Source: Candidatus Zixiibacteriota bacterium
GTDB taxonomy: Bacteria; SM23-81; DAOVCL01
Direction of reading: 5' to 3'
DNA: 34,912 nucleotides
Assembly (NCBI GenBank): GCA_030670005.1
Contig: DAOVCL010000002.1
Span: 1-34,912 of the forward strand
The notes under the pieces are model-generated. The model worked only from the letters and a program-made list of their open reading frames with translations. It was not told the DNA's origin and searched no databases. Below are positions 1,650 through 34,912 of the stretch, one piece after another. Each line of letters begins with the position of its first letter. The first letter of the stretch is position 1. The translations under genes and the position numbers were made by a program.

Positions 1650-3911
1650 ATGGGACTCTTTTTTATTCTTTTGCCTGGCTTGGCCCAGGCAGGGGGTTGG
1701 CACACCTATACAAACACCAATTATCTCAACGATCTGAAGGTTATAGGCAACCAGGTTTGGTGGGGAACAAATGGTGGGATGGTGAAATACGATAACTCGG
1801 ATAGCTCTTACACCATCTACCGGAACACAGACGGCCTGGGGGGGATAAATGTGGGGGCAGTGGAGGTGGATGATGAGGGAAACCTCTGGTTTGGCCTGGC
1901 AAATGGGGTATTAAACAGGCTCAGGCCCAATGGGGAATGGAAGAGGACATTCCTGGAATGCGGCATTAACTACCTGAGATACCATCAGGGGAAAATATGG
2001 GCAGCCACCGAGAAGGCTCTGATAAAGTTTGATCCTCAAACCTGGCTCCCTTTGGATATCTGTGAACAGCCGGGAACTGGGTTGCAGAGGGATCGACCCA
2101 TCAGGTGCCTCTTCTTTTGGGGGGATACCCTCTGGGCCGGCACAGAGGGGGGAATCTCCTATATCGATATTGCCCAGACGGAAAACCTCAGGGACCCAGC
2201 CCAGTGGACCTACTTCACCGAAGAGAACTCATCCTTGGGAAATGATGAGATCAACACGATTGCCTCATATCAGGGGGAAATATACACGGGCACTGGAGAC
2301 GGTATCTACAAATTTGCCGATAGTTTATGGGAGCCAATTGGGGGTGATTGGCAGGACGGCAGAATCTATGATCTAAAGACCCACTCCGGCAAACTCCTGG
2401 CGGTGACCGCCAAGGGAGTTTGGCGGTGGGAGAACGGAGACCTCGACTCCCTGAAATGTCCCTCCTCAGTTACTCGTAAGTTAAGCATTGGCCCACAGGG
2501 AGAGCTTTGGGTGGGAACCTGGGGGGAGGGAACCCTCCTCTACTCAGGCGGAGGGTGGCAATACCCATTTAAGACCCAGGGCCCCATCGGGAACAGGATA
2601 GCGGATATGACCTTAGATGGGGAGGGACGGCTCTGGTTGGCCTCTCCAGGATACGGGATGAGCGGCTTCGATGGGAAGAGGTGGGAGAACTTTAGCCCGA
2701 TAGCAGATACCACCCTCCATTCTCATCCCAATGGTCACGAAAGCCCTATCTCAAAGGGCATCTGTGCGGTAGCCGTAGACAAGGTAGGGAACAAGTGGTT
2801 CGGCCTCTGGGCTGGGGGGGTGATCAAGCTCGATACAGAGGGGAATCAGACCCTATATGATGAGGACAACAGCATTCTCAGGTTTAGCGATCCCAATTAT
2901 AAGTGGGCCACCTGGAATGTGGTGGTAAACCAGATAATGGTGGACAAGGCAAACAACAAATACTTTGCCAACTGGTATAATGGGGTAGCCATCTTAGACA
3001 GTAGTGAGACCAATTGGGTGATGTATGATCGCCTAATAAGCGATGGCGTCATCACTGGCAGGCTCATTCTGGATATGCTCATTGACAACCAGGGAAGAAA
3101 ATGGTTTGCCCACCGCGACGGGGCGGGGGGTAGCCAGGGTGGGGTAAGCTATCTGTTTGATGATAAGGGGACTCCCCTTGATCAAGAGGATGACAGTTTG
3201 GTCTATTTCTTGGGGGAGAGGGATGGGCTTTTAAACAACAAGGTGAACTCCCTGGCGATTGACCTTGATGGTTCAATCTGGATGGGCACCGATGAGGGGG
3301 TGAGCAAGTATGACCCCTGGCTCTCCCCGGTCCCCATCCCAGGATACAGGTTCCTGCCAAACTATTTGGACAGGATCGGCTACCGAGAGGTCAGCTCCAT
3401 AGAGGTTGACACCAAGGGGAACAAGTGGTTTGGCACCAGCAGTGGCTTGCTCAGATATGAAGAGGAGGATTTCACCTGGCAGGAGTTTACCCCCAAGAAC
3501 AGTGGCCTCCTGGACGAGAAGATAAACTGCCTCCTCTTGGACAAGGACAAAGGACATCTCTGGATAGGGACGGACAAGGGGCTATCTATGTATGAGTTGG
3601 ATATGGTCAAACCAAAGCCTAAACTCTCACAGCTTCTGGTATATCCTAACCCCCTCATCCTCTCCCGGAATGGGGCAGGGTCCAGGAGTGGGGCCGAGGT
3701 CAAATTCAAAAACCTGACGGCCACATCCACTGTATACATCTTCACCGTTAACGGCGAGCTGGTCAGTGAGATACCCTCTCAAGGACTTGGCCTGGTAAGC
3801 TGGGACGGGAGAAATCAGGGCGGGAACCTGGTGGCCTGCGGGGTCTACATCTGGGTGGTAAGGGATAAAAATGGAAACAATAGGACGGGAAAGATAGCAG
3901 TGATCAGATGA
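1650..3911 (+). CDS. Secreted multi-repeat beta-propeller protein (two-component-regulator-propeller-like repeats) with a C-terminal FlgD-Ig/T9SS-type sorting domain
   Basis: The ORF is 1560..3911. The ATG at 1650 is preceded by GAGGTG and opens a signal peptide (MGLFFILLPGLAQAGG). G-x-LW(V/I)GT, WFGT and GLxxYD repeats run throughout. The C-terminus VYPNPL...VKFKNL...VYIFTVNGELV...WDGRNQGGNLVACGVYIWVV...GKIAVIR is typical of this sorting domain. Confidence 0.8.
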   Translation: MGLFFILLPGLAQAGGWHTYTNTNYLNDLKVIGNQVWWGTNGGMVKYDNSDSSYTIYRNTDGLGGINVGAVEVDDEGNLWFGLANGVLNRLRPNGEWKRTFLECGINYLRYHQGKIWAATEKALIKFDPQTWLPLDICEQPGTGLQRDRPIRCLFFWGDTLWAGTEGGISYIDIAQTENLRDPAQWTYFTEENSSLGNDEINTIASYQGEIYTGTGDGIYKFADSLWEPIGGDWQDGRIYDLKTHSGKLLAVTAKGVWRWENGDLDSLKCPSSVTRKLSIGPQGELWVGTWGEGTLLYSGGGWQYPFKTQGPIGNRIADMTLDGEGRLWLASPGYGMSGFDGKRWENFSPIADTTLHSHPNGHESPISKGICAVAVDKVGNKWFGLWAGGVIKLDTEGNQTLYDEDNSILRFSDPNYKWATWNVVVNQIMVDKANNKYFANWYNGVAILDSSETNWVMYDRLISDGVITGRLILDMLIDNQGRKWFAHRDGAGGSQGGVSYLFDDKGTPLDQEDDSLVYFLGERDGLLNNKVNSLAIDLDGSIWMGTDEGVSKYDPWLSPVPIPGYRFLPNYLDRIGYREVSSIEVDTKGNKWFGTSSGLLRYEEEDFTWQEFTPKNSGLLDEKINCLLLDKDKGHLWIGTDKGLSMYELDMVKPKPKLSQLLVYPNPLILSRNGAGSRSGAEVKFKNLTATSTVYIFTVNGELVSEIPSQGLGLVSWDGRNQGGNLVACGVYIWVVRDKNGNNRTGKIAVIR

Positions 3912-5332: not shown

Positions 5333-6364
5333 ATGGAATCCAAGCTATTCCTCTCCTCCTCCCCCCATATCAGGGATGATGTCTCCATCCCCAAGATAAT
5401 GTGGACGGTGAACATCGCCCTTCTACCTGCCTTGTTGGGCTCTCTCTGGTTCTTTGGTCTGAGGGCCCTATGGTTGGTGGCCGTGAGTATCCTAACTGCG
5501 GTGGGAACCGAGGCCCTGCTGGAGAAGCTGATGAAGAAGCCTTTAACCATCTACGATGGATCTGCAGTGATCACGGGGATACTTCTCGCCTTTAACCTAC
5601 CTGCCGGCGTTCCTCTCTGGATGCCTGCTGTGGGGTCGGTGGTTGCCATTGGCATAGGGAAACAGGTTTTTGGAGGATTGGGTTTTAACCCTCTGAATCC
5701 AGCCCTTCTGGGAAGGGCATTCCTGATGGCCTCCTGGCCGGTGCATATGACCACAGATTGGATCCTCACCCGTTATGGAACGATGAACGGGATTGACACG
5801 GTGACCAGGGCCACTCCTCTTAAAGTCTACCAGTTGGCCAGGGACTACCTCTCCGCCCACCAGGGAGTATCCCCGGAGCAGTTATCCCAGGCCAAGGTCA
5901 CCCTCACCCATCTATCCCAGGCCTACAGAAACCTCTTCTGTGGCAATGTGAGCGGCTCCCTGGGGGAGACTTCTTTCCTCCTCCTCTTCGTAGGAGCATT
6001 TCTCCTCTTCCTCAAGGGGTATATCGGCTGGAGGATACCGGTATCCTTCATCGGCACCGCGGCCCTGGGAGCCTGGATATTCGGCGGGACAGGTAGGCTG
6101 TTTACCGGTGATCCCCTCTTCCACATCTTGGCTGGAGGGCTGGCCTTGGGGGCCTTCTTTATGGCCACCGATATGGTCACCTCCCCTGTTACCCCCAAGG
6201 GGAAACTTCTATTCGGATTTGGCTGTGGATTGATCACCATACTTATCAGATTGGTTGGGGGCTACCCAGAGGGGGTCTCTTACTCCATTCTCTTGATGAA
6301 CTTAATTGTCCCACTTTTGGATAGATATACCAAGCCCAGAAGGCTGGGGGAGGTGAGAAGATGA
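5333..6364 (+). CDS. rnfD: Rnf electron-transport complex subunit D
   Basis: 343 aa polytopic NqrB/RnfD-type protein (SSSPHI..., DTVTRATPL, FFMATDMVTSP, SILLMNLIVPLLD). Its start abuts the rnfC stop. Confidence 0.92.
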   Translation: MESKLFLSSSPHIRDDVSIPKIMWTVNIALLPALLGSLWFFGLRALWLVAVSILTAVGTEALLEKLMKKPLTIYDGSAVITGILLAFNLPAGVPLWMPAVGSVVAIGIGKQVFGGLGFNPLNPALLGRAFLMASWPVHMTTDWILTRYGTMNGIDTVTRATPLKVYQLARDYLSAHQGVSPEQLSQAKVTLTHLSQAYRNLFCGNVSGSLGETSFLLLFVGAFLLFLKGYIGWRIPVSFIGTAALGAWIFGGTGRLFTGDPLFHILAGGLALGAFFMATDMVTSPVTPKGKLLFGFGCGLITILIRLVGGYPEGVSYSILLMNLIVPLLDRYTKPRRLGEVRR

Positions 6365-6942
6365 AAGAGATAATCAAGTTTGGTGGCCTTCTCCTCTTAA
6401 TTACCGGAGTGGCCGCTGGTCTTTTGGCCTATGTGGACTCTCTGACCAAACCGAAGATAGAGGAGCAGAAGAGGTTAGAAGGGGAGGAGGCCCTAAGCTG
6501 GGTTCTCCCCCAGGTCAAAGAGGGGGTGATCATCCATGTTTGCTCCAAGGGCAAGACCCTTTACTATATCGGCTATGCCCACAAGGACACCACAGATCTG
6601 GTTGGATACGCCTTCCTGGCCAAGGGCACGGGTTACTCCAGCGATATTGAGACGATGGTAGGGGTAGACACCTCTGGGGTGATCACCGGGATAAGGATAC
6701 TCTCCCAGAAGGAGACCCCGGGGCTTGGCTCCCGCATTCTGGAGGTAAAGCCAGGGGAGACGGAGCCCTGGTTTCAGCGCCAATTTAAGGAGAAGAAGGC
6801 AGATCAGGTAGCGGTAGAGAAGGATGGGGGAGAGATAAACAGCGTCACCGGCGCCACCATCTCCTCCCGGACAGTGACCAACTCCATCAAGGAGGGGGCC
6901 TTGAATTTGGCAAAGCTGATCGAAGAAAGCAAAGAAAAATGA
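6361..6942 (+). CDS. rnfG: Rnf electron-transport complex subunit G (FMN-binding)
   Basis: 193 aa with an N-terminal anchor. It has ETPGLG and the FMN attachment block SVTGATISSRTV. It overlaps rnfD by 4 nt. Confidence 0.9.
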   Translation: MKEIIKFGGLLLLITGVAAGLLAYVDSLTKPKIEEQKRLEGEEALSWVLPQVKEGVIIHVCSKGKTLYYIGYAHKDTTDLVGYAFLAKGTGYSSDIETMVGVDTSGVITGIRILSQKETPGLGSRILEVKPGETEPWFQRQFKEKKADQVAVEKDGGEINSVTGATISSRTVTNSIKEGALNLAKLIEESKEK

Positions 6943-7535
6943 GGACAGGAAAGGTGTTCGTCAAGGGGATCTACCAGGAGAACCCCATCTTCCGGCTGGC
7001 CCTGGGCCTCTGTCCCTTCCTGGCAGTGACCAGTTCGACAGAGAATGGGTTGGGAATGGGATTGGCAGCCACCTTCGTCCTGGTAGGCTCAAACTTCATC
7101 ATCTCCCTGGTGCGCAAGCTAATTCCCCAGAGGATTAGGATCCCTTGTTTTATCGTGGTGATAGCCACCTTTGTCTCCCTGGTAGAGATGGTTATGCAGG
7201 CCTACTCCCCTGGGTTGTATAAGAACCTGGGCATATTCGTCCCCTTGATTGTGGTCAACTGCATCATCCTGGGAAGGGCGGAGGCCTTTGCCAGCAGGAA
7301 CGGGGTGGGTCTCTCCCTGCTCGATGGGTTGGGAATGGGGGTTGGTTTTACTCTGGCCCTGGTGATTATCGGGGTCATCAGGGAGCTATTGGGATCGGGA
7401 AAGATCTTTGGGCACATCATCCTTGGTTCGGGATATAACCCGGCCCTTCTCTTCATCCTCCCTCCGGGCGCCTTCCTCACCATTGGCCTTCTTATGGGGC
7501 TGTTTAACTATGTAGAAGAAAGAGCAAAGAGATGA
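6939..7535 (+). CDS. rnfE: Rnf electron-transport complex subunit E
   Basis: 198 aa NqrD/RnfE-type protein ([40 protein letters not shown]). It overlaps its neighbours by 4 nt. Confidence 0.9.
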
Positions 7536-8137: not shown

Positions 8138-9154
8138 ATGAGCTCAGGGATACTCATTCCCATATTAAGCGTGGGTGGATTGGGCCTGATCTTTGGCGTT
8201 GGCCTGGCCTTGGCCGCCAAGAGGTTTGCCGTGAAGGTCGACCCCAGGGTGGAGAAGATCCTTGAGGCCCTGCCTGGGGCAAACTGTGGGGTCTGTGGTT
8301 ATCCGGGCTGCTCAGGCTTTGCCGAGGCGGTAGTGGCGGGGAAGGCACCTGTTAACGGCTGCGTGCCTGGGGGGCCGGCTGTGGCCAAAACCTTGGGCAA
8401 GATAATGGGCAAGGAGGCTGAAGAGGGGATAAAAAAGATAGCCTTTGTCCAATGCCGGGGAGGGAAGGATAAGGCCAAAGGGAAGTTTAGCTATCAGGGA
8501 TTGGAGAACTGTGGAGCAGCCTCGCTCATCTCCGGTGGCCCTAAGGCCTGCAGGTATGGCTGTCTGGGGTTTGGAGATTGCGTGAAGGTCTGCCCTTTCG
8601 GTGCCATCGAAATGGGGGAGGACGGAATTCCGGTAGTGGACGATGAGAAATGCACCGGATGCGGCCTCTGCGTGCAGGCCTGCCCCCGGGGGATAATCAC
8701 CCTCTTGCCTTTCTCTCAAAAGGTCTTCGTTGGCTGCGTATCTAAGGATAGGGCGGCTGTGGTGAAGAAGGCCTGCGCTGTAGGCTGTATCGGATGTGGC
8801 ATCTGTGCCAAAAAATGTCCTCAGGGAGCAATCACCATCAAGGATAACTACGCCTGGTTTGACTATAACAAATGCACCAGTTGCGGCACCTGCGCCTATG
8901 TCTGCCCCACCAAGGCCATCGTGGACAAGGTCAAAGCCAGGCCAAAGGCGTCAATTGGCACTGGTTGCACGGGCTGTGGCATCTGTAAGGAGGTCTGTCC
9001 GGCCAAGGCCATCTCCGGGGAGAAGAAATCAAGACACCAGGTGGATATGGACAAGTGTATCGGTTGCGGCCTCTGCTTTGAGAAGTGCCCGGTAAAGGCC
9101 ATTAATATGGTGGGAGCCTTAGGTTGGGTAGAGAAGAAGAAGGGGGTAGCTTAA
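8138..9154 (+). CDS. rnfB: Rnf electron-transport complex subunit B, long polyferredoxin form
   Basis: 338 aa with an N-terminal anchor and the CGVCGYPGC cluster motif. A variant CxxxCx5CxxxCP motif follows. Five canonical CxxCxxCxxxCP motifs are present: CTGCGLCVQACP, CIGCGICAKKCP, CTSCGTCAYVCP, CTGCGICKEVCP and CIGCGLCFEKCP. Confidence 0.9.
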   Translation: MSSGILIPILSVGGLGLIFGVGLALAAKRFAVKVDPRVEKILEALPGANCGVCGYPGCSGFAEAVVAGKAPVNGCVPGGPAVAKTLGKIMGKEAEEGIKKIAFVQCRGGKDKAKGKFSYQGLENCGAASLISGGPKACRYGCLGFGDCVKVCPFGAIEMGEDGIPVVDDEKCTGCGLCVQACPRGIITLLPFSQKVFVGCVSKDRAAVVKKACAVGCIGCGICAKKCPQGAITIKDNYAWFDYNKCTSCGTCAYVCPTKAIVDKVKARPKASIGTGCTGCGICKEVCPAKAISGEKKSRHQVDMDKCIGCGLCFEKCPVKAINMVGALGWVEKKKGVA

Positions 9155-9164
9155 GAATTAAGAA

Positions 9165-9187
9165 CTTAGCGCCCTTCGGGCACTAAG
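9165..9187 (+). terminator. Hairpin downstream of rnfB (possible terminator)
   Basis: CTTAGCGCCC-ttc-GGGCACTAAG is a 10-bp stem with one mismatch. The trailing T-tract is weak. Confidence 0.35.
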
Positions 9188-9208
9188 TTCAAAAGTTGAG
9201 CTTTTCAT

Positions 9209-10207
9209 ATGAAGAAGATTGCGATTTTCGTTATGTATAATATTGTTGTGGTGCTTTCATTATTTATCTCACTTGAGCTTATAATCAGATCCACTCTCCC
9301 AGAGATTAAACCTTATGCAACCGATAAGAGAATATTGGTTGATAGTATGTATTACGATTCAAGAGGACTTAAACCATTGAGTGCTGGTTACTCAAATGAG
9401 GTATTGGTGAAAGTTGATAGGTTGGGCTTTAGAAAGTGTAGTACCCCAATCGACAAATTGAAAAGGAGTTGGCTTCTCTTAGGAGACTCGATTACAATGG
9501 GTATTGGTGTAGAGAATGATTCAACATTTGCATGTATTATTCAAAACCAAGTGGATTCATTAAACATATTGAACCCATCTGTAATTGGCTATGCAGCGAA
9601 AGATTATATGAATGTCTCCAAGTATTTTGTCATTGATAAAGTTTACAATTTGGATATCAGGAGAGTCATTATTTTTTGGTGTTTAAATGATGTTTACTTT
9701 ACTCTGTCAGATATCGAAACTCCAGGTGGTCATCTCAGATATTTATTGGGTGATTTTCTGAAATTTTTAAGACTTAATAGCAGATTTTACCTTTTCATAA
9801 AGAATCTCGTTTTTGATAGACCTAAAAGCTATTATAACTTTGATGAGAGATTCTATTCTGAAGATGATCCTGAATTTGTCAAGTCAATAGATAAGATTAT
9901 AGAAATAAGCCAACTGTGCTCCAAGCAGAATATCGATTTTCATATTGTCGTACTTCCCTATGAGTATCAGCTAAGGAACCCTAATTCTTTGATCCGTAAA
10001 CCCCAGAAAATCATATCTACCAGACTTATGAATGAAGGCATTACAGTGTTGGATCCGATGGAATTCTTTAGAGATACTTCTAAAGAATCCAAAGAATTCT
10101 TCTTGTATGGGGATGGGATGCATTTATCAAACACAGGCCATCGACTACTTGCCGAATTTGTAATCAAAAGCTTGATTGAATCTCAGAAAGATATAAGACC
10201 TAATTAA
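9209..10207 (+). CDS. Membrane-anchored SGNH/GDSL-family hydrolase
   Basis: 332 aa with an N-terminal TM helix. Block I is LLLGDSITMGIG, and the block V-like motif is GDGMHLSNTGHRLLAEF. It is markedly more A+T-rich than its flanks. Confidence 0.7.
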   Translation: MKKIAIFVMYNIVVVLSLFISLELIIRSTLPEIKPYATDKRILVDSMYYDSRGLKPLSAGYSNEVLVKVDRLGFRKCSTPIDKLKRSWLLLGDSITMGIGVENDSTFACIIQNQVDSLNILNPSVIGYAAKDYMNVSKYFVIDKVYNLDIRRVIIFWCLNDVYFTLSDIETPGGHLRYLLGDFLKFLRLNSRFYLFIKNLVFDRPKSYYNFDERFYSEDDPEFVKSIDKIIEISQLCSKQNIDFHIVVLPYEYQLRNPNSLIRKPQKIISTRLMNEGITVLDPMEFFRDTSKESKEFFLYGDGMHLSNTGHRLLAEFVIKSLIESQKDIRPN

Positions 10208-28896: not shown

Positions 28897-29067
28897 GCCA
28901 CAAAGGCACCAAGCCCCAAAGTCTTGATTAAATATAGATTAAGCAAATGTTCACAGGTTAATGCAGAGAAACTGAGTTTAACAAACAGGGGTTCTTATGT
29001 TTAATCTTCTTAGTAATCCTTCGACTTCGCTCAGGACATGCTTGGTGGCTTCGTGGCTAAATTTATG
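28897..29067. repeat. Inverted-repeat (MITE-like) element in the intergenic region
   Basis: GCCACAAAGGCACCAAGC (28897..28914) against GCTTGGTGGCTTCGTGGC (29050..29067): 16 of 18 positions are complementary. Confidence 0.4.
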
Positions 29068-29075
29068 AATAGTTC

Positions 29076-29672
29076 GTGCCAATGAATAAAAAGGCTTTTT
29101 TGTCTATCATACTTTTTCTCATATTAGGGACAGCCTGTAAGAACCCCTTCTCTCTGCGCAAAAGCGAAGAGCCAAAGGGAAAACCGGGCAGGTGGGAGGT
29201 GCCCACTAAGCCTCAAGAGGCCATAAACAATCTGGCCAGGGTCTATAGGGATCAGTCCTTAGTAAACCTTGCCAACTGTCTGGATAAATCCTTTACCTTC
29301 TCCGCCCCAGAGGAGTCCCTCCGTTCCCCCTCTCTCTTTTACAACTGGGAGAAGACCAGGGAAGTAGAGGTCACCAGAGGGATATTCTCTCAGGTGATTC
29401 CGGATTCCCTCTCCATCTTCCTCTCCTTGGAAAAGGATTCCCTGATATCCGATGAGATTTATACTGAGCAGGCAACCCTATATCGGCGCTACTATCTGAT
29501 CGTAGAGGGATCTGCCAACGCCCCCTTACACCATCCTGCCTATGGTCTGGCCTGTTTCAGGTTGATCCTGGGGGATGATAACCTCTGGAGGCTAAGCTTC
29601 TGGAGGGATGAGCCCGTGGAGAGGGATGGGGCAAATAGCTGGGCTGCCCTCAAGATTGAACTTGGCTGGTAG
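29076..29672 (+). CDS. Putative lipoprotein of unknown function
   Basis: MPMNKKAFLSIILFLILGTAC provides a lipobox-like Cys. I recognised no domain. Confidence 0.5.
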   Translation: MPMNKKAFLSIILFLILGTACKNPFSLRKSEEPKGKPGRWEVPTKPQEAINNLARVYRDQSLVNLANCLDKSFTFSAPEESLRSPSLFYNWEKTREVEVTRGIFSQVIPDSLSIFLSLEKDSLISDEIYTEQATLYRRYYLIVEGSANAPLHHPAYGLACFRLILGDDNLWRLSFWRDEPVERDGANSWAALKIELGW

Positions 29673-29692
29673 CGAAACCATATGGGTAGGTC

Positions 29693-29783
29693 GGGGTCAA
29701 GCCTTTAACTGCTAATTACCGTAGGGGGCTGTCAGAGGGGGATACTTAGCAGCGCCTAAATTGGTAATTAAAGGTTTGACCCC
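29693..29783. repeat. 91-bp palindromic element with 16-bp terminal inverted repeats, at the core/cassette boundary
   Basis: GGGGTCAAGCCTTTAA (29693..29708) pairs with TTAAAGGTTTGACCCC (29768..29783) with one mismatch. An internal stem is CTGCTAA/TTAGCAG. Confidence 0.6.
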
Positions 29784-29878
29784 CAACTGTGCTTCGGGTA
29801 GGGATACTGCTCCAGGTACTCCCGGGCGAAAGTGGTTTTGCCCGATCCATTAGGACCGGCAACGACTAAGGCTTGCAC
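29768..29878 (-). pseudogene. 5' fragment of a zeta-toxin-like / AAA P-loop kinase gene, truncated by the palindromic element
   Basis: GGGAGG precedes a GTG at 29878. The product is VQALVVAGPNGSGKTTFAREYLEQYPYPKH (Walker A GPNGSGKT). The frame then reads into the right TIR and stops after 36 codons. Confidence 0.5.
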
Positions 29879-29924
29879 TCTCAATCAACCTCCCACTCGC
29901 CATATGTCTGAGTTCAAGCGCTTG

Positions 29925-30089
29925 TTATGAGGCTTTTTGTTGCTTGATTGCGAAAGACACGACGCGATGATTAGAAGCTTTTTGCCTTCTTCGAGCATCT
30001 TCTACTATATTCTTTATGTTGTAGTTGAATTTCTCGGCATTAGCTTCACGAATTTTTCGAACTTCTTGAACTATAGGATCTTTCCACAT
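29925..30089 (-). CDS. 54-aa protein, conserved small partner of the upstream PIN-like gene (below the ORF-track size cut-off)
   Basis: MWKDPIVQEVRKIREANAEKFNYNIKNIVEDARRRQKASNHRVVSFAIKQQKAS. The ATG lies 1 nt after the PIN-like gene stop. The N-terminal block (DPIVxEVRxxRxxxAxKFNYd) is one I recall from small ORFs in similar pairs, but this is unverified. Confidence 0.5.
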   Translation of the reverse strand: MWKDPIVQEVRKIREANAEKFNYNIKNIVEDARRRQKASNHRVVSFAIKQQKAS

Positions 30090-30090
30090 T

Positions 30091-30567
30091 TTAGTCTTCT
30101 CCCATTAACTCTTCAGGTGTGCAAATAATCGGACATTCATATCCTCTTGATTTGCAAACTGATTTAATTCCGATTGATATTTCAGCATTTGCCAGGTGAG
30201 CGCAGTTCCATGTTAAGAGAAACTGTATGTTGTGAACAGTTGCAATGGCGATGTGTGCAGCATCTGTGGCAGCTTTCTGAGGAATAACACCAGCGTCCAG
30301 AATTGCAGAGGCCAAATCTGTTACATCATCGGTAATATCCAACAGGTCAAATTCAGACAAAATTTCAAGTCTTCTTTGTGATGCTTCTTCGTCCCCTTGC
30401 CCTGTCTCATCAATCACAAACTGCGAAATAAAAATTTCAAAATTATGCCTTCGCTTTTCCCACCATTCATGGGTAATTTGTTGATGTGCAGCAACAATCA
30501 AATCCCTACTTGGTCGGGCAGTCTGATAACTTGGAATTGTGGTTTCTAAATATAGTTTAGCTTTCAT
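30091..30567 (-). CDS. PIN-like domain protein (VapC-like toxin candidate)
   Basis: 158 aa. Acidic residues sit in PIN-like positions: LYLETTI..., VIDETGQGD and ATDAAHIAIATV. WNCAHLAN follows. The C-terminus is CTPEELMGED. Confidence 0.6.
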   Translation of the reverse strand: MKAKLYLETTIPSYQTARPSRDLIVAAHQQITHEWWEKRRHNFEIFISQFVIDETGQGDEEASQRRLEILSEFDLLDITDDVTDLASAILDAGVIPQKAATDAAHIAIATVHNIQFLLTWNCAHLANAEISIGIKSVCKSRGYECPIICTPEELMGED

Positions 30568-30649
30568 GGTTCAGATACTCTTCATCTAAATGTGGCTAAA
30601 TCAAAGTTTATGCTTTCCAGCCTCATAACAATGATTAGGCGACGAGCAC

Positions 30650-30994
30650 TCAATCTTGGAATGCCTCAGGTTCCTCATACAGGTTGAACACAAACCCAAA
30701 AGGATCACGCATATAGCAACAGCCTCCTTTACCCTCCCAGCGGACAACTTCGCACCCTGCTTGGAGAAGCTCTTCTTTTGCTTTCTCTACATTAGGGACC
30801 AGAACTTCCAGGATTGGCCCCATAGAGGCTCCTTGATCAAAGAAGAGGCGAAGGTGCCCAGCTTGAAGCTCGATTGCCTTTCCCTCCTGACCAACCACTT
30901 CGAGTCCCATGACATTCTTGTAAAACTCCACAGCCTGATTAGGGTCCGGAAGCTGTAAACAAACACATCGGCCAAATTTGTAAAGCATGGTCAA
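30650..30994 (-). CDS. VOC-family (glyoxalase/bleomycin-resistance/dioxygenase fold) protein
   Basis: 114 aa. AVEFYKNVMGLEVV...HLRLFFDQ..., LEVLVPNVEKAKEELLQAGCEVV...YMRDPFGFVFNLYE. Confidence 0.8.
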   Translation of the reverse strand: MTMLYKFGRCVCLQLPDPNQAVEFYKNVMGLEVVGQEGKAIELQAGHLRLFFDQGASMGPILEVLVPNVEKAKEELLQAGCEVVRWEGKGGCCYMRDPFGFVFNLYEEPEAFQD

Positions 30995-31018
30995 ACGACT
31001 CCCTTCTCATAGTATGTC

Positions 31019-31092
31019 GCTTAACGGGTGGCTAAGCGGCTGGCAAAGAAGCGCAGCGGATTTGCCAGTCCGACTTCAGCCGATTGTTGTAC
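31019..31092. other. attC-like recombination site
   Basis: gCTTAAC is followed by a 4-nt unpaired spacer. GGCTAAGCGG pairs with CCG(a)CTT(c)AGCC, and CTGGCAAA pairs with TTTGCCAG around the loop GAAGCGCAGCGGA. The site ends with a second spacer and GTTGTac. The extra unpaired bases are all in the right arm. Confidence 0.6.
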
Positions 31093-31268
31093 GCTCTACA
31101 AATTGATCCTTCAGAAATCATGTTATTTTGAACTCAACTTGGATTTGTATTAATCAGTATTTGTGACATTATTTAGTTTTCGCCCGATCTTTCTCTGCTT
31201 CAAAGGATCCCGATAGCATGCTTTTACCTTCTTCCTTTGGTGGTAGTGAAATATTTCTTTCAAGTGAT

Positions 31269-31904
31269 TCATTTTGCAAAAATTAAGGTAGTGTTCTCTG
31301 ATGTTATTTCCTGGCCATGATCTAATAGACCATTGAAAAGAATTTCAATAGCACGAATCATCAATGGATTTTCGGTCTTGATACCGTCTAGTACTACCTT
31401 GTTATCTTGATATCCCAGAAAAGTGCAAAAAAAACCAAATTTCAATGCGGTATTGAGTCCAATCCTGAAATTGTACGGAACAAGATTATCGAAGACATAC
31501 AAGTGAATATTGGGATGTTGCACCAGCAGGTGGCATCTTTCGGGATTTTTAGTAGCCCATTCCTTAAAGGGAATAACATTCACTGCAACAAACACCTCGT
31601 ACCGACCAGTAGCCACAAGCTCTATGATCCTTACGTAAGGATCATAGCTTGGATATCCCCCTGCACCTGACATCAAATAAATTTTGCCTTCTTGGGCGGA
31701 ATCAATGTTGATAAACACTTGCGCAAACAACTGCCGAAGCTGTTGTCTTGAGGAAACACGAGAAAAAGATCTATATACTGAGAACGGAAGGAATTTGTTC
31801 AGATACGATAACAGCCTGGACTTATCGAATAGTACCAAGGATACTAACGCCAAAAGAACTCCAGCTATGAAGCTTGCTATTATGCTTATCGTGAAGGTAA
31901 ACAT
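31269..31904 (-). CDS. Single-pass membrane-anchored protein of unknown function (second gene of the two-gene cassette)
   Basis: 211 aa. The N-terminal TM helix is FTISIIASFIAGVLLALVSLVLF. A ~170-aa soluble domain follows, which I cannot assign. It starts 9 nt after the stop of 31914..33335. Confidence 0.6.
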   Translation of the reverse strand: MFTFTISIIASFIAGVLLALVSLVLFDKSRLLSYLNKFLPFSVYRSFSRVSSRQQLRQLFAQVFINIDSAQEGKIYLMSGAGGYPSYDPYVRIIELVATGRYEVFVAVNVIPFKEWATKNPERCHLLVQHPNIHLYVFDNLVPYNFRIGLNTALKFGFFCTFLGYQDNKVVLDGIKTENPLMIRAIEILFNGLLDHGQEITSENTTLIFAK

Positions 31905-31913
31905 GGTGACACG

Positions 31914-33335
31914 CTAGGCGCAATTATATGTAAGTTTTGTTATAGCGTCAAAAAAAACAGACAGTCGAGCTTTCATATTGTGGTCAATGGTTATATCTAT
32001 TCCATTTCTGAATTGCAAATCGATCCAGGCTTGGAGAATAACCTTCTTTTCCTTTGAGATATGGCAATTACTGAGTTCAATAGACATCTTTTTACACCCT
32101 TCCAATATTTCTTTGATCATTCTTTCACGGATGTGATATCTCTCTAATAGAATTTGCAATTCAGAAAGGGAGTTATCCGCTTTATTCTTCCAAATTGATT
32201 TATAGAAAAAGGCCTTCTCTTTCTCAGAAGAAATGTTTTCTAATAATAACAATGTATAATAACTAAATATTCCCCGCTTAACATCTGAAAATGCATCAAT
32301 TTTTGAAATAATATCATAGTAATCATTCTTGATTTGCCCGAGTTTGGCACAAATCGGATATATCCTAGTCATTAATTCTTTTTCTTCATGATAACCCAAA
32401 TCTGCTAACGCAGCATTCCATATAGTTTGCAAGAAAGATGTTCTCTGATAGCTAAATTCCAGGTAATCATCAATAGAATGGAATTTATTATTGACAAATC
32501 TCTTTGATTGGGCGACTCCAAGATCGAAGCAAATTTTGTTTACTAATTCAGAATTTACTAAATTGAATTGCCTATTATTTATTAATGCTTGCAAGGAGGT
32601 AGAGAATAAAAATAGAGTGATAACATTTTGAGGCAGACCGTTAAGCCCAAGAGCAGTAAGGCGTCCATAGCGTTCCTTTTTATTATCACACACGTTGTCA
32701 AGTATAATAAAAATAGAAAACAGAATTTCCGCAAGGATAGAATATGCTAACGAATTATTGTCACAACAACATAAAAGAAAAGGAATGGCAGATTTAAACT
32801 TGCGATATGGAGTGGCCTGAATGGTATATTTAATAATGGAGTAATTATATATTTCTTTGAATTCTCTTAGACTGGGGCTAATATATGAATAAAATAATGC
32901 AGTAAATATTCTACCAATTTCGTTGGCATAGGACGCTATTGATACTTTTTGTGAGATTCTAAACTTTAGTATAGCAATAAGGGCCTCTAGTACCGTTGCT
33001 TCTGGTATGTGCTCAAGAGATACAAATCTGAGTTCATCAGCCGTATGCGGAGAGTTATTAACTGGAACGCCTACAACAACAGTGCATCTGTAAATCGCAA
33101 CCGTCCAAGTAGCCCTTTCAGCAAAATAAACAAGGCCATCTACAGATATTTCTAAGGTAGTTTCTTCCTTAACTTCGCGTACAAGAGCATCCTGTTCATT
33201 CTCTCCTACTAGCACCTCACCACCAGGAAGTGACCACAACCCGCTCACAAACTCTTCTTCTGAAGACCTTCTCAGCATTAAAACCTCATTAGCGTCATTA
33301 ATTATTAATCCACCCACAAAACGTCTTTTCATCAT
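31914..33335 (-). CDS. Nudix hydrolase fused to a polyprenyl (trans-isoprenyl diphosphate) synthase-like domain with non-canonical Asp-rich motifs
   Basis: The Nudix box GEVLVGENEQDALVREVKEETTL fits Gx5Ex7REUxEExGU except for the last G. The C-terminal ~300 aa carry RKFKS and FIILDNVCDNKKERYG (at the DDxxD..RRG position). They also carry SYQRTSFL (KT position), KLGQIKNDYYDI (GxxFQxxDDxxD position) and DVKRGIFSY. Confidence 0.65.
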   Translation of the reverse strand: MMKRRFVGGLIINDANEVLMLRRSSEEEFVSGLWSLPGGEVLVGENEQDALVREVKEETTLEISVDGLVYFAERATWTVAIYRCTVVVGVPVNNSPHTADELRFVSLEHIPEATVLEALIAILKFRISQKVSIASYANEIGRIFTALFYSYISPSLREFKEIYNYSIIKYTIQATPYRKFKSAIPFLLCCCDNNSLAYSILAEILFSIFIILDNVCDNKKERYGRLTALGLNGLPQNVITLFLFSTSLQALINNRQFNLVNSELVNKICFDLGVAQSKRFVNNKFHSIDDYLEFSYQRTSFLQTIWNAALADLGYHEEKELMTRIYPICAKLGQIKNDYYDIISKIDAFSDVKRGIFSYYTLLLLENISSEKEKAFFYKSIWKNKADNSLSELQILLERYHIRERMIKEILEGCKKMSIELSNCHISKEKKVILQAWIDLQFRNGIDITIDHNMKARLSVFFDAITKLTYNCA

Positions 33336-33410
33336 GGTTCCGTTGTTTATTGGCTATATGGCTATTCAAAATTAAAAAATTAAACCATCTCTTGTATCGA
33401 TTACTTTTAC

Positions 33411-33542
33411 GTACAACGCTTGAGCTCAACCGCCGCCAACAATGCGGAGCAAAGAGCCTGAATGACCTATGAGCGTTTTGTGGGACAATGCATTTCAAGA
33501 ACCGCAACGTTGTTGGCGGTCGGCTGAAGCAACTTGTTAGCG
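33411..33542. other. attC-like recombination site (long form)
   Basis: gtaCAAC...GCTTGAGC/GCTGAAGC...CCGCCAACAA/TTGTTGGCGG, then a long variable loop, ending ...cttGTTAGcg. The track ORF 33298..33507 runs through it and is spurious. Confidence 0.55.
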
Positions 33543-33588
33543 CAAAAACATAACTCTAAGAACTTGTTCCTATTACTTCCCACAGTTG

Positions 33589-34527
33589 TCAAAATGTACG
33601 TTTACCTTTCTTCATCGCATCAATTTTAGCTTTCATTCGACCAATTACTTCGTCGTATGTGCGTAGATAAAGATTGGGAACATCAGATTGAATTTTACGG
33701 ACATCAATTGGATTTACCTCTCCCCTTCGTCCAATGATTACGAACATTTTAGGCCGATAGGCTAATAAACCGTATTTTTCATAGATTGTTTTTCGATTTT
33801 TTTCTTCGTCAAAAAATATGCTGTATTCTCGGAGTTGTGCACAGGCTTCTAATACGGCTGCCGTAAATCTAAGTCTATTTTTCTTTAATACAAATATCTG
33901 TGTTGAGGGAAGTTTCAGTTCGAGCAAATCGGATAATGAACTTTGATCAATTGGCTCTAAGACGAAATCTGGTATAAGCGAATCCCCATCATCTTTGGCT
34001 AAAACTATGTGAGGGTGTGCACTCTTGTATTCATCATTTAAAATAAAATCAGGATTTCTCTCAAAGAAATCTTGAAAATCTTTTTCTTTTGTATTCGTAT
34101 CATTTACCAGCGACTCTAGTTCTTCTACAGCAGTTCGTAACGCCATCGTTTCTGAAGAGGTGATATATAGAATGCTATGAAGATTTTGTTCATCATCAAG
34201 AAACTTATAATTACCATCAGGGCTGAGTGAGACCAGCTTAATCTTGTCACCAAAGAGAGTAAATGCAACAAATTCATGTTCCGGCAATTCTTGTGATTTA
34301 TTATCTTCTTCGGGTTCTTCTTCAGGGTCAATTCCACGAACAACATTCTCAGCCGCTGGACCATTTTTTAATTGGGTCCTTTCAAAGGTGACAACTTCAC
34401 CTTCTTTTAGCGTCTTAAAACCTTCGCCTTTTATAAAACTAAAGTGCACAAACAAATCTTCACCATTTTCATCTGTGATGAATCCATATCCCTTTTTTTC
34501 GTTAAACCACTCTACTGTGCCTTTCAT
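33589..34527 (-). CDS. Cold-shock domain fused to a Shedu-type (DUF4263, SduA-like) PD-(D/E)xK nuclease domain
   Basis: The N-terminus [47 protein letters not shown] is a CspA-type CSD with RNP1/RNP2-like blocks. An acidic linker follows. The DUF4263-like layout is [16 protein letters not shown]...IPDFVL...LLELKLP...AQLREY...[10 protein letters not shown]. Confidence 0.78.
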
Positions 34528-34604
34528 AATCCCTCTTTACATTAAAACCAATTCATTAATAGATTCTGAGCAACATATATTTGGAGTTTGACATTGATGA
34601 GAGA

Positions 34605-34677
34605 GCGCTAACGATCAAGCTCACCTGCCGCTATGGAGCGCAGCGGAATAGCGGTCAGGTGCAGCGCCTTGTTAGAA
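34605..34677. other. attC-like recombination site
   Basis: gcgCTAAC is followed by a spacer. CACCTG pairs with CAGGTG and CCGCTAT pairs with ATAGCGG around the loop GGAGCGCAGCGGA. One extra base sits in the right arm. The site ends with a second spacer and GTTAGaa. Confidence 0.65.
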
Positions 34678-34711
34678 GTTTTTATTTTCTATTGTAAATG
34701 TTTTTTGTTAT

Positions 34712-34906
34712 TCAAAAATATCTACTTTTCTGGAAATTTATTTTTAATTCCTTGTTCACCATTTTACAGTTAGGGCAAATTTTTTCCACTAATCTGTATA
34801 TATAATAAAGGACGTTTCTCTTTTTGCAATTCCGAGTGTATTTACACAGCGGACACTCGGCACAATGTTTAACAGCATCACTAGTTTTGTTTGTATTCTT
34901 ATTCAT
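34712..34906 (-). CDS. 64-aa cysteine-rich (zinc-ribbon-like) protein
   Basis: HCAECPLC...CPNC gives two CxxC pairs. The protein is basic. It is a single-ORF cassette upstream (in minus-strand sense) of the attC-like site at 34605..34677. Confidence 0.45.
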   Translation of the reverse strand: MNKNTNKTSDAVKHCAECPLCKYTRNCKKRNVLYYIYRLVEKICPNCKMVNKELKINFQKSRYF

Positions 34907-34912
34907 TTTATT

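Follow-up and report, generated by a model that had tools for sequence, protein, structure and literature searches.

A rare two-gene module pairing a Nudix–isoprenyl diphosphate synthase-like fusion with a membrane-anchored PLD-fold protein between attC-like sites in a Zixiibacteriota bacterium

The DNA considered here, called the window throughout, is the whole 34,912-nt stretch at positions 1 to 34,912 of contig DAOVCL010000002.1 (assembly GCA_030670005.1) of a Candidatus Zixiibacteriota bacterium. From position 1 to about 29,700, the window is ordinary chromosome, including genes for the Rnf complex, TatC, an Mla transporter, KsgA, and TatD; its final 5 kb holds a series of minus-strand genes of lower GC content with attC-like sites in between. 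Within this series lies a pair of genes, both on the minus strand as are all their features given below, that is the subject of this report: gene 1 (31914..33335), encoding a 473-aa fusion of a Nudix domain to a domain with the fold of isoprenyl diphosphate synthases (IPPSs), and gene 2 (31269..31904), encoding a 211-aa single-pass membrane protein with a phospholipase D (PLD) fold that lacks the catalytic HKD motif. A preliminary description of the same DNA had proposed two open reading frames (ORFs) at these positions, separated by 9 nt, and both are found there with that spacing. The module is an undescribed architecture made of known folds, namely, a mobile accessory operon in which an enzyme that processes metabolites or nucleotides is combined with a single-pass membrane protein.

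Gene 1 scores above the curated Pfam thresholds for two families, NUDIX (57.9 bits vs a cut-off of 21.1, residues 3–111) and polyprenyl_synt (PF00348; 35.6 bits vs a cut-off of 27, residues 198–375), and its homologues share 28–36% identity with it. Its AlphaFold2 model, computed from an alignment of four sequences, has a predicted local distance difference test score (pLDDT) of 82 and a predicted template-modelling score (pTM) of 0.84, and a Foldseek comparison against the Protein Data Bank (PDB) divides it cleanly into two halves. The first (residues 1–128; 32952..33335) has the α/β/α fold of the Nudix superfamily and resembles Mycobacterium smegmatis MutT2 (TM-score 0.80, 30% identity); in sequence, its nearest PDB matches are MutT2, MutT, NudG (a CTP pyrophosphohydrolase), and NUDT18. 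All four belong to the (d)NTP pyrophosphohydrolases and not to the ADP-ribose or isopentenyl-diphosphate isomerase (IDI) types. The Nudix box, GEVLVGENEQDALVREVKEETTL, occupies 33153–33221, as checked by translation, and reads G39-x5-E45-x7-R53-E54-V-x-E57-E58-x-T60-L61; compared with GX5EX7REUXEEXGU, it deviates once, with Thr for Gly at the penultimate position, where the homologues have the canonical Gly. All six full-length fusions that are followed by a partner gene keep the box intact. In addition, the PADLOC profile PDC-S07 matches gene 1 (E 3.6e-15), through the Nudix part only. Judged by box and fold, the first half belongs to the MutT/MutT2 type of Nudix proteins and is a predicted pyrophosphohydrolase whose catalytic box is intact. 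An ordinary fusion of IDI to an IPPS was considered and rejected because the box is that of a hydrolase, the IDI model matches only at E 0.033, and the best matches are of the MutT type.

The second half (residues 136–473; 31917..32930) adopts the isoprenoid-synthase fold. Foldseek aligns it with geranylgeranyl diphosphate (GGPP) and decaprenyl diphosphate synthases (6kd7, TM-score 0.77; 3mzv, TM-score 0.79; also 1wy0) at 12–18% identity, and a profile of this domain alone matches the polyprenyl synthetase 6kd7 with E 3e-8. In that alignment, LDDlcDqrseRY lies over hDDIMDAADLRRG and GQllNDyyD over FQLMDDYLD, which are the first and second Asp-rich motifs (FARM and SARM) of the solved enzymes. 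The motifs of the window copy, with positions verified by translation, are PYRKFKS (32790–32810), DNVCD (32685–32699), RTSFL (32427–32444), and GQIKNDYYD (32313–32339), followed by a KK motif (32040–32045). Across the family, PYRKFKS is nearly invariant, and RTxFL and KK are conserved. The first Asp motif reads D(D/N)xxD followed by RxxRY (consensus LDDxCDxRxxRY), with its first and last Asp invariant and the DNxxD form present in three of eight members (the window copy, L003, and L004). The second reads GQxxNDxxD rather than the canonical (F)QxxDDxxD in every one of nine sequences, including the stand-alone homologue at locus L010. Because NDxxD is invariant, the domain represents a divergent sister family, not canonical IPPSs, and, as far as the alignment can tell, the altered Asp motifs are a family trait and not decay. 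Moreover, no part of the protein is better conserved than the IPPS-like ligand positions (R298, F301, G333, Q334, N337, D338, D341, D351, and K431 are invariant), and the domain keeps the basic and acidic positions that would bind diphosphate and Mg2+. A reading as a class I terpene cyclase (DDxxD plus NSE/DTE) was rejected because the residues past NDxxD do not follow a conserved (S/T)xxxE pattern and every match, by sequence or by fold, is to a chain-elongating synthase.

Every member of the family carries an aromatic residue (F/W) four positions ahead (−4) of the first Asp motif. In the mutagenesis work of Ohnuma and Tarshis, a bulky residue at −4/−5 in farnesyl diphosphate and GGPP synthases reportedly restricts the product to short chains. 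The bulky-residue principle is backed, in its general form only, by a review (PMC7839719). On the strength of this aromatic residue and of the rule for the two synthases, a short prenyl diphosphate, about C10–C20, is the predicted substrate or product of the domain.

Gene 2 matched no family in Pfam, PADLOC, or NCBIfam, and its sequence profile matched nothing in the PDB even at E 10, so that its placement came from fold comparison only. The AlphaFold2 model, computed from a seven-sequence alignment, has a pLDDT of 85. Searched with Foldseek against the PDB, its domain (31305–31772) retrieves, in order, the sugar-binding domains of TrmBL2/TrmB, the human FAM83 pseudo-PLD, and then NucT, Nuc, Zucchini, and the C-terminal domains of PPK1; against BFVD, it retrieves viral PLD-like proteins. 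In both databases, matches at E ≤ 1e-3 are solely to PLD-fold proteins and span E 4e-6 to 7e-4. The catalytic HxK(x)4D(x)6GSxN pattern is absent from the family alignment: no His or Lys is conserved where HxK is expected, position 134 varying among H, E, K, R, N, and Q, and gene 2 is for this reason regarded as a PLD fold without the catalytic motif. What is conserved instead is S79, G82, G83, D88, R147, G149, and N151, the last three in the patch R147-x-G149-x-N151-(T/S), which is RIGLNT in the window copy (31449–31466). In its modelled fold, the protein most resembles the non-catalytic, ligand-binding members of the PLD superfamily. A hydrophobic N-terminal helix (31827–31898) spans the membrane and is kept in 13 of 14 partner-family members, with 0–1 basic residues before it and 3–7 after it. 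By the positive-inside rule, these flanking charges indicate an N-out/C-in topology, which would put the PLD-fold domain in the cytoplasm together with the soluble enzyme. The preliminary description had anticipated much of this from the letters alone. The near-canonical Nudix box, the isoprenyl-synthase layout of the C-terminal half, on which Pfam, AlphaFold/Foldseek, and the profile-to-PDB search all agree, the individual motifs and the view that the Asp-rich motifs are altered but not destroyed, the single N-terminal transmembrane helix, and the likeness to PLD/Nuc proteins lacking HxK were each borne out.

Both genes have conserved homologues with 26–48% identity in other metagenomes, and hence the pair is real far beyond chance. 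It is, nevertheless, extremely sparse and taxonomically scattered. The fusion has just three word-index homologues among 5.8 billion clusters; for the partner, a single-sequence search retrieved only itself, a profile search added five homologues, and an exhaustive phmmer scan of 1.84 billion representative proteins yielded 12 real clusters. No relatives were found when the GTDB species-representative genomes were scanned with the fusion and partner alignments, and no homologues were found in viral contigs, annotated plasmids, or phages. Wherever DNA could be retrieved, which gives nine independent loci (the window, L001, L002, L003, L004, L005/6, L007/9, L011–13, and L014), the partner immediately follows a fusion-family gene at its 3′ side (9/9). 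This holds although partner identity falls as low as 26% and the GC content of the loci ranges from 0.30 to 0.60, with gaps between the two genes running from stop/start overlap up to 35 nt. In addition, the divergence of the fusion and that of the partner are correlated pairwise (Mantel r 0.75, a value reached by 15 of 5040 permutations). Linkage between the two genes is obligate, their spacing is tight, and their sequences diverge together.

This record also bears on the idea that the pair is a cassette-stabilizing addiction module of the toxin–antitoxin kind, or a non-functional relic. Such pairs are common in chromosomal integron arrays, the next cassette in the window contains a PIN gene, and one locus has a damaged partner. 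Against this stand the size and enzyme-like character of the proteins, their 26–48% identity across hosts of such different GC content, the intact motifs of the window copy, and the recovery of its array at 99.9–100% identity in three further samples, and we regard the idea as hardly credible. The damaged partner lies at L002 (1593–2067), where the gene is split: the transmembrane segment and the final ~110 residues are read in different frames and separated by a gap where ~165 nt are missing. Either this copy is decaying or the assembly collapsed at this point.

Three relatives lack an intact Nudix domain, namely, L008, in which RVLADT replaces REUxEE, P0003, which has lost the Nudix core, and L010, in which the IPPS-like domain stands alone, and none of them has a downstream partner. 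Compared with six of six intact-Nudix loci that are paired, this distribution has an exact probability of 1/84, in a small sample of loci that are not phylogenetically independent. Since it persists without Nudix in these three cases, the IPPS-like domain looks like a core functional unit and not an accessory. This weakens an explanation in which the Nudix domain is the sole effector, defending the cell by (d)NTP hydrolysis, in the way that may hold for stand-alone Nudix cassettes, with the IPPS-like domain as a non-catalytic regulatory or oligomerization scaffold and the PLD-fold protein as a membrane anchor or regulator. The explanation draws on the proximity of the Nudix half to MutT2, MutT, and NudG, on the PDC-S07 match, on the phage protection given by stand-alone NUDIX cassettes, and on the altered Asp-rich motifs. 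It sits poorly, however, with the ligand positions of the IPPS-like half being the most conserved of the whole protein, and overall it seems quite improbable.

In the window, the array runs in the following order: a small Cys-rich ORF, an attC-like site, a gene for a cold-shock-domain–SduA (Shedu) protein, an attC-like site, the Nudix–IPPS/partner pair, an attC-like site, a glyoxalase gene with a PIN gene and a 54-aa ORF, and a weak attC-like site. The pair is thus the sole occupant of the interval between two attC-like sites, both of which fold as bulged hairpins (z −2.7 and −2.3). The upstream site (33411..33539, minus strand), between the Shedu cassette and the pair, folds as single-stranded DNA with −27 kcal/mol (z −2.68; 1 of 200 shuffles doing as well), and the R′ core CGTTGTAC at its 3′ end puts the upstream cassette boundary at ~33416. 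The downstream site (31019..31089, minus strand; z −2.29) has its R′ core, CGTTAAGC, at a position that puts the other boundary at ~31025, and independent assemblies break at this site. The cassette therefore measures ~2.39 kb. Both sites match a common core, YAACAAK...CGTTRNNS, which occurs just four times in the 34.9 kb, always in intergenic DNA 3′ of cassette-tail ORFs; as the pattern was derived from these very sites, the informative part is its absence from the remaining 29.8 kb. A scan of the whole window for R″/R′ pairs plus folding gave mainly coding-region false positives and missed known sites, and was replaced by folding of intergenic candidates together with the core-pattern count. 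The stop codon of the distal ORF sits within the R″ core. In three other samples, the array recurs at 99.9–100% identity in the same order, on contigs that end or diverge at attC sites. ORFs bounded by attC-like sites and lined up in one orientation are what is expected of integron cassettes; no integrase was seen in the window (1–34912), and the array continues past its end at 34912. The array could belong to a large chromosomal integron or be a cluster of attC sites that has no integrase.

An Rfam scan of 29000–34912 returned no match and, therefore, no riboswitch or leader, and a promoter and terminator scan of the region gave matches not in excess of shuffles. One sequence within the 3′-terminal part of the fusion gene, shortly before the start codon of the partner (31923–31951, minus strand), matches the sigma-70 consensus at 11 of 12 positions (TTGACG-17-TATAAT); it could drive the partner separately, such matches being no more frequent region-wide than in shuffled DNA. 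As a separate observation on the distal attC-like site (window 29857–29927), the contig L015 from another sample matches the window without a difference as far as CATAACAA, which is the R″ core of that site, and diverges from there, the break being at R″ and not at the canonical G|TT of R′. Past the divergence, L015 carries a decayed IS200/RAYT-like transposase fragment (3473–3812) within the perfect 17-bp inverted repeats AATGGGGACGCTGGTAA and TTACCAGCGTCCCCATT.

The surroundings of the module are mobile or defence-rich, with Shedu in the window, a SIR2–pAgo gene at one other locus, and a restriction–modification pair at a third. The window neighbour (33589–34527, minus strand) encodes an SduA_C nuclease (PADLOC SduA, E 5e-23) with a complete N-terminal cold-shock domain (CSD, 89 bits). 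At L004, the module sits between a full-length SIR2-APAZ-pAgo gene (PADLOC, 1286 bits) and a gene of the PNP family with matches to PDC-M60C and to a PN-superfamily effector; at L001, a methyltransferase and an HNH endonuclease, a serine recombinase, and an MPTase-PolyVal gene are nearby; and L003, which together with L004 forms a pair of mutual closest relatives, adjoins a group II intron reverse transcriptase and transposases. No quinone or isoprenoid pathway genes, including those for supply of isopentenyl or dimethylallyl diphosphate (IPP/DMAPP), cyclases, or UbiA-type enzymes, were found in any locus.

These contexts agree with what the preliminary description had put forward, namely, a pair alone between attC-like sites, next to a Shedu-type cassette and near a PIN-like pair, that would move as one piece. 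It had also said what would speak otherwise: a C-terminal domain outside the isoprenoid-synthase fold, genes that never co-occur elsewhere, or a regular home in quinone or isoprenoid operons. The domain lies within the fold, all nine loci are paired, and the settings are an integron array, a SIR2–pAgo/PNP island, a restriction–modification/recombinase region, and an intron/transposase region. Its interpretation, which for function offered either a defence or signalling module or a mini-pathway to a prenyl phosphate, is accordingly upheld in part, as to architecture, linkage, and non-housekeeping context, and its statement that no described system has this architecture stands after searches of PADLOC, Pfam, NCBIfam, the PDB, and the literature.

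Taken as a whole, the best explanation, to which we give a tentative probability of about 0.4, is a horizontally mobile two-gene module whose products would form an enzyme complex tethered to the membrane and acting on a short prenyl diphosphate as well as on a pyrophosphate bond, probably in conflict or defence. In such a complex, the partner would dimerize as other single-domain PLD-fold proteins do and would hold the soluble fusion enzyme at the inner face of the membrane, anchoring or gating it. The IPPS-like domain would bind or make a short prenyl diphosphate of about C10–C20 or, alternatively, might pass the prenyl group on to an acceptor that carries a diphosphate. The Nudix domain would then cut a pyrophosphate bond, converting prenyl diphosphate to prenyl phosphate or acting on an NDP- or NTP-linked moiety, and the inert PLD-fold pocket at the membrane might bind the phospho-product. 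Going by context, the role would be conflict with phages or other mobile elements through altered prenyl-phosphate or nucleotide pools or an altered membrane, not core isoprenoid metabolism. When all defence-type models are summed, a role in conflict or defence is on balance slightly favoured because of the contexts, the PDC-S07 match, and the phage resistance conferred by stand-alone NUDIX integron cassettes (bioRxiv 10.1101/2024.07.02.601719; bioRxiv 10.64898/2026.03.17.712381).

Several points weigh against this explanation. The defence association comes from only three or four long contexts, and L003 and L009 also have ordinary neighbours (an S41 peptidase, thioredoxin-like and TPR proteins). 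Neither gene matches PADLOC-DB 2.0 as a system, the fusion matching PDC-S07 only, through its Nudix part, and the partner nothing, with a database that has no model for the IPPS-like domain. The closest characterized Nudix relatives hydrolyze (d)NTPs and not prenyl diphosphates. Canonical chain elongation by the IPPS-like domain is not assured, given that Asn stands in for the first Asp of the second motif throughout the family and for the second Asp of the first motif in three of eight members. Moreover, the structure models were built on shallow alignments (4 sequences for gene 1 and 7 for gene 2), and some neighbours look biosynthetic. In L003 (5528–6586) and L004 (9318–10328), a third gene overlaps the stop codon of the partner and encodes a DAO-like FAD-Rossmann protein with a weakly GlpO-like N-terminus, the two copies sharing 28% identity (E 6e-40), and in L004, an NAD-dependent epimerase/dehydratase gene (6281–7246) lies immediately 5′ of the fusion.

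Because of the DAO-like and epimerase genes, a specialized-lipid or terpenoid mini-pathway with no immune role stays a serious rival, although an unlikely one. The IPPS-like domain would make a short or irregular prenyl diphosphate, the Nudix domain would trim it to the monophosphate, the PLD-fold protein would receive or hand on the lipid, and the FAD oxidoreductase would tailor it in some loci, the whole serving as an adaptive envelope or metabolite trait. The catalytic motif positions kept in both domains, the precedents of phosphatase–terpene-enzyme fusions and the NUDX1 route, the non-defence neighbours at L003 and L009, and the many non-defence functions of integron cassettes, such as that of the adjoining glyoxalase cassette, are all in keeping with this pathway. 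It fits less well with the absence of isoprenoid genes from all loci, the scattered distribution, the recurrence of known defence genes nearby, a Nudix domain of the (d)NTPase type, and a partner without catalytic residues for lipid processing.

The same architecture can be read as small-molecule signalling in defence: triggered by infection, the fusion would produce a ligand able to diffuse, such as a nucleotide that has been prenylated or processed by Nudix, upon which the HKD-less PLD-fold receptor would oligomerize and permeabilize the membrane, causing abortive infection. The logic is analogous to that of Pycsar, CBASS, and the transmembrane effectors of type III CRISPR systems. An enzyme is coupled with a protein that has one transmembrane helix and a cytoplasmic domain of ligand-binding type, the top structural neighbours of which, the TrmB family, bind ligands; a nucleotide-type (Nudix) and a prenyl-donor-type (IPPS-like) domain share one polypeptide; IPPS-fold prenyltransferases with non-isoprenoid acceptors exist; the partner occurs only where the Nudix box is intact; and the contexts are rich in defence genes. 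However, no sensor domain is evident, a single transmembrane helix is a weak pore former, we know of no messenger of such chemistry, and the scheme as a whole is read off the architecture, which makes it rather doubtful.

A bolder version of the defence explanation, which we likewise hold to be a fairly long shot, is an isoprenoid-based immune module. On infection, the fusion would make a prenylated or prenyl-phosphate molecule, possibly a prenylated nucleotide, and the inactive membrane PLD-fold protein would sense or insert it, halting the cell, with the IPPS-like domain acting as a reusable generator of signals or toxins that is wired elsewhere to other effectors. The elsewhere in question is L010 (99–4041), where the stand-alone IPPS-like gene (IDDMSD, GQMKNDLYD; polyprenyl_synt 49 bits) overlaps a radical-SAM gene and is followed by a gene for a 648-aa SIR2_2 protein, the three-gene island adjoining guaA-like and carB genes. 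Possibly, this island is another system, distinct from the module, that makes use of the same IPPS-like domain. An assignment of its radical-SAM protein as viperin was rejected, as the PADLOC match is absent.

If the module is a conflict or defence system, as the best explanation has it, the isoprenoid-synthase fold would for the first time have been found in such a role; an inactivated PLD fold would gain a use as a membrane receptor or anchor, and prenyl-phosphate or nucleotide pools would be tied to immunity. If it is metabolic, it would represent an undescribed bifunctional enzyme, prenyl-diphosphate-synthase-like and Nudix, with an invariant NDxxD that may carry out non-canonical prenyl chemistry of biotechnological interest. 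Either way, an orphan partner family of about 12 clusters and with no Pfam entry gains a fold and an obligate partner. Its rarity limits the ecological weight of the module, and the 2.4-kb cassette is compact and clonable.

Other features of the window deserve mention in their own right. The CSD–SduA protein is also similar to the retron Se72 effector model and is an unusual nucleic-acid-sensing fusion. On the other side of the pair, the glyoxalase-like gene, the PIN-domain gene, and the 54-aa ORF (29925–30994, minus strand) appear to form a single cassette, no attC-like fold being found in the 82-nt glyoxalase–PIN gap (30568–30649; z −0.79); as the small ORF comes after the PIN gene, the order is the opposite of that usual for VapB–VapC. 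At the window edge, a 64-aa Cys-rich ORF (34712–34906, minus strand) of zinc-ribbon-like pattern (CxxC...C...CxxC), for which no family match was found, is a further cassette, followed by the best-formed attC-like site (34606–34674). Far from the array, GC content falls to 0.37 amid ~0.53 at 9001–10207, coinciding with a weakly SGNH/GDSL-like 332-aa gene (9209–10207) after the Rnf operon, which may be a foreign insertion.

Among known systems, no paper in the literature searched combines Nudix, a prenyl synthase, and phage defence, and the lipocone survey of lipid-head-group conflict systems makes no mention of such a module. The parts taken singly have clear relatives. With trans-isoprenyl diphosphate synthases (PF00348; the GGPP synthases 6kd7 and 1wy0 and the decaprenyl diphosphate synthase 3mzv), gene 1 shares the all-α fold (TM-scores 0.77–0.79), an above-threshold Pfam match, and alignable counterparts of the first Asp-rich motif, the Arg that follows it, the K/R–T position, and the C-terminal Lys. 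It differs from them in the fused Nudix domain, in NDxxD for DDxxD (invariant), DNxxD in three of eight members, and RKFKS for GKRxR, in its location outside isoprenoid and quinone operons, and in identity of only 12–18% to the solved enzymes. Closer in the state of the motifs are the all-α-helical prenyltransferases XiaM and Ord1, which have an IPPS fold with a FARM and a "pseudo-SARM" and prenylate indole, a non-isoprenoid acceptor (PMC12510300). The likeness, drawn by fold and motif only, consists of the IPPS-superfamily fold, a retained first motif, and a non-canonical second one, and these enzymes show that such a domain can move a prenyl group to a non-isoprenoid acceptor; they belong, however, to actinomycete natural-product clusters and have neither a Nudix fusion nor a PLD-fold partner.

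Coupling of prenyl-diphosphate enzymes with phosphatases has precedents as well. Fusions of a phosphatase with a terpene enzyme are reported from marine bacteria (PMC9128629, PMC12365925). The HAD–TCβ drimenol synthases, like the plant route from geranyl diphosphate (GPP) synthase through NUDX1 to geraniol, join a prenyl-diphosphate enzyme to a (pyro)phosphatase, sometimes in one chain; they differ in using HAD with a class II cyclase instead of Nudix with an IPPS-like domain, in lacking a membrane PLD-fold partner, and in being biosynthetic rather than mobile or defence-associated.

Gene 2 shares its fold (Foldseek E 4e-6 to 7e-4) with HKD-less PLD/Nuc proteins, such as the TrmB/TrmBL2 sugar-binding domain and the FAM83/BJ-TSA-9 pseudo-PLD, and with true HKD enzymes (Nuc, NucT, Zucchini, and the cardiolipin/PS synthases). 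Compared with the latter, it has a remnant G-x-N-(T/S) in the place of GSxN and lacks the conserved His and Lys of HKD. An N-terminal membrane anchor like that of gene 2 is also present in Zucchini and Cls. The protein stands apart from known PLD-fold proteins in having no sequence-level match in the PDB or Pfam and in being always paired with the Nudix–IPPS fusion. Lastly, gene 1 has the Nudix box and fold in common with MutT, MutT2, NudG, and PDC-S07, and an integron-cassette location in common with the NUDIX defence cassettes Brc167 and Vibrio vulnificus LDILCD_07645, a likeness by description and not by sequence. In contrast to the stand-alone Nudix proteins, its Nudix domain makes up the first 128 residues of a 473-aa fusion and comes with an obligate membrane partner.

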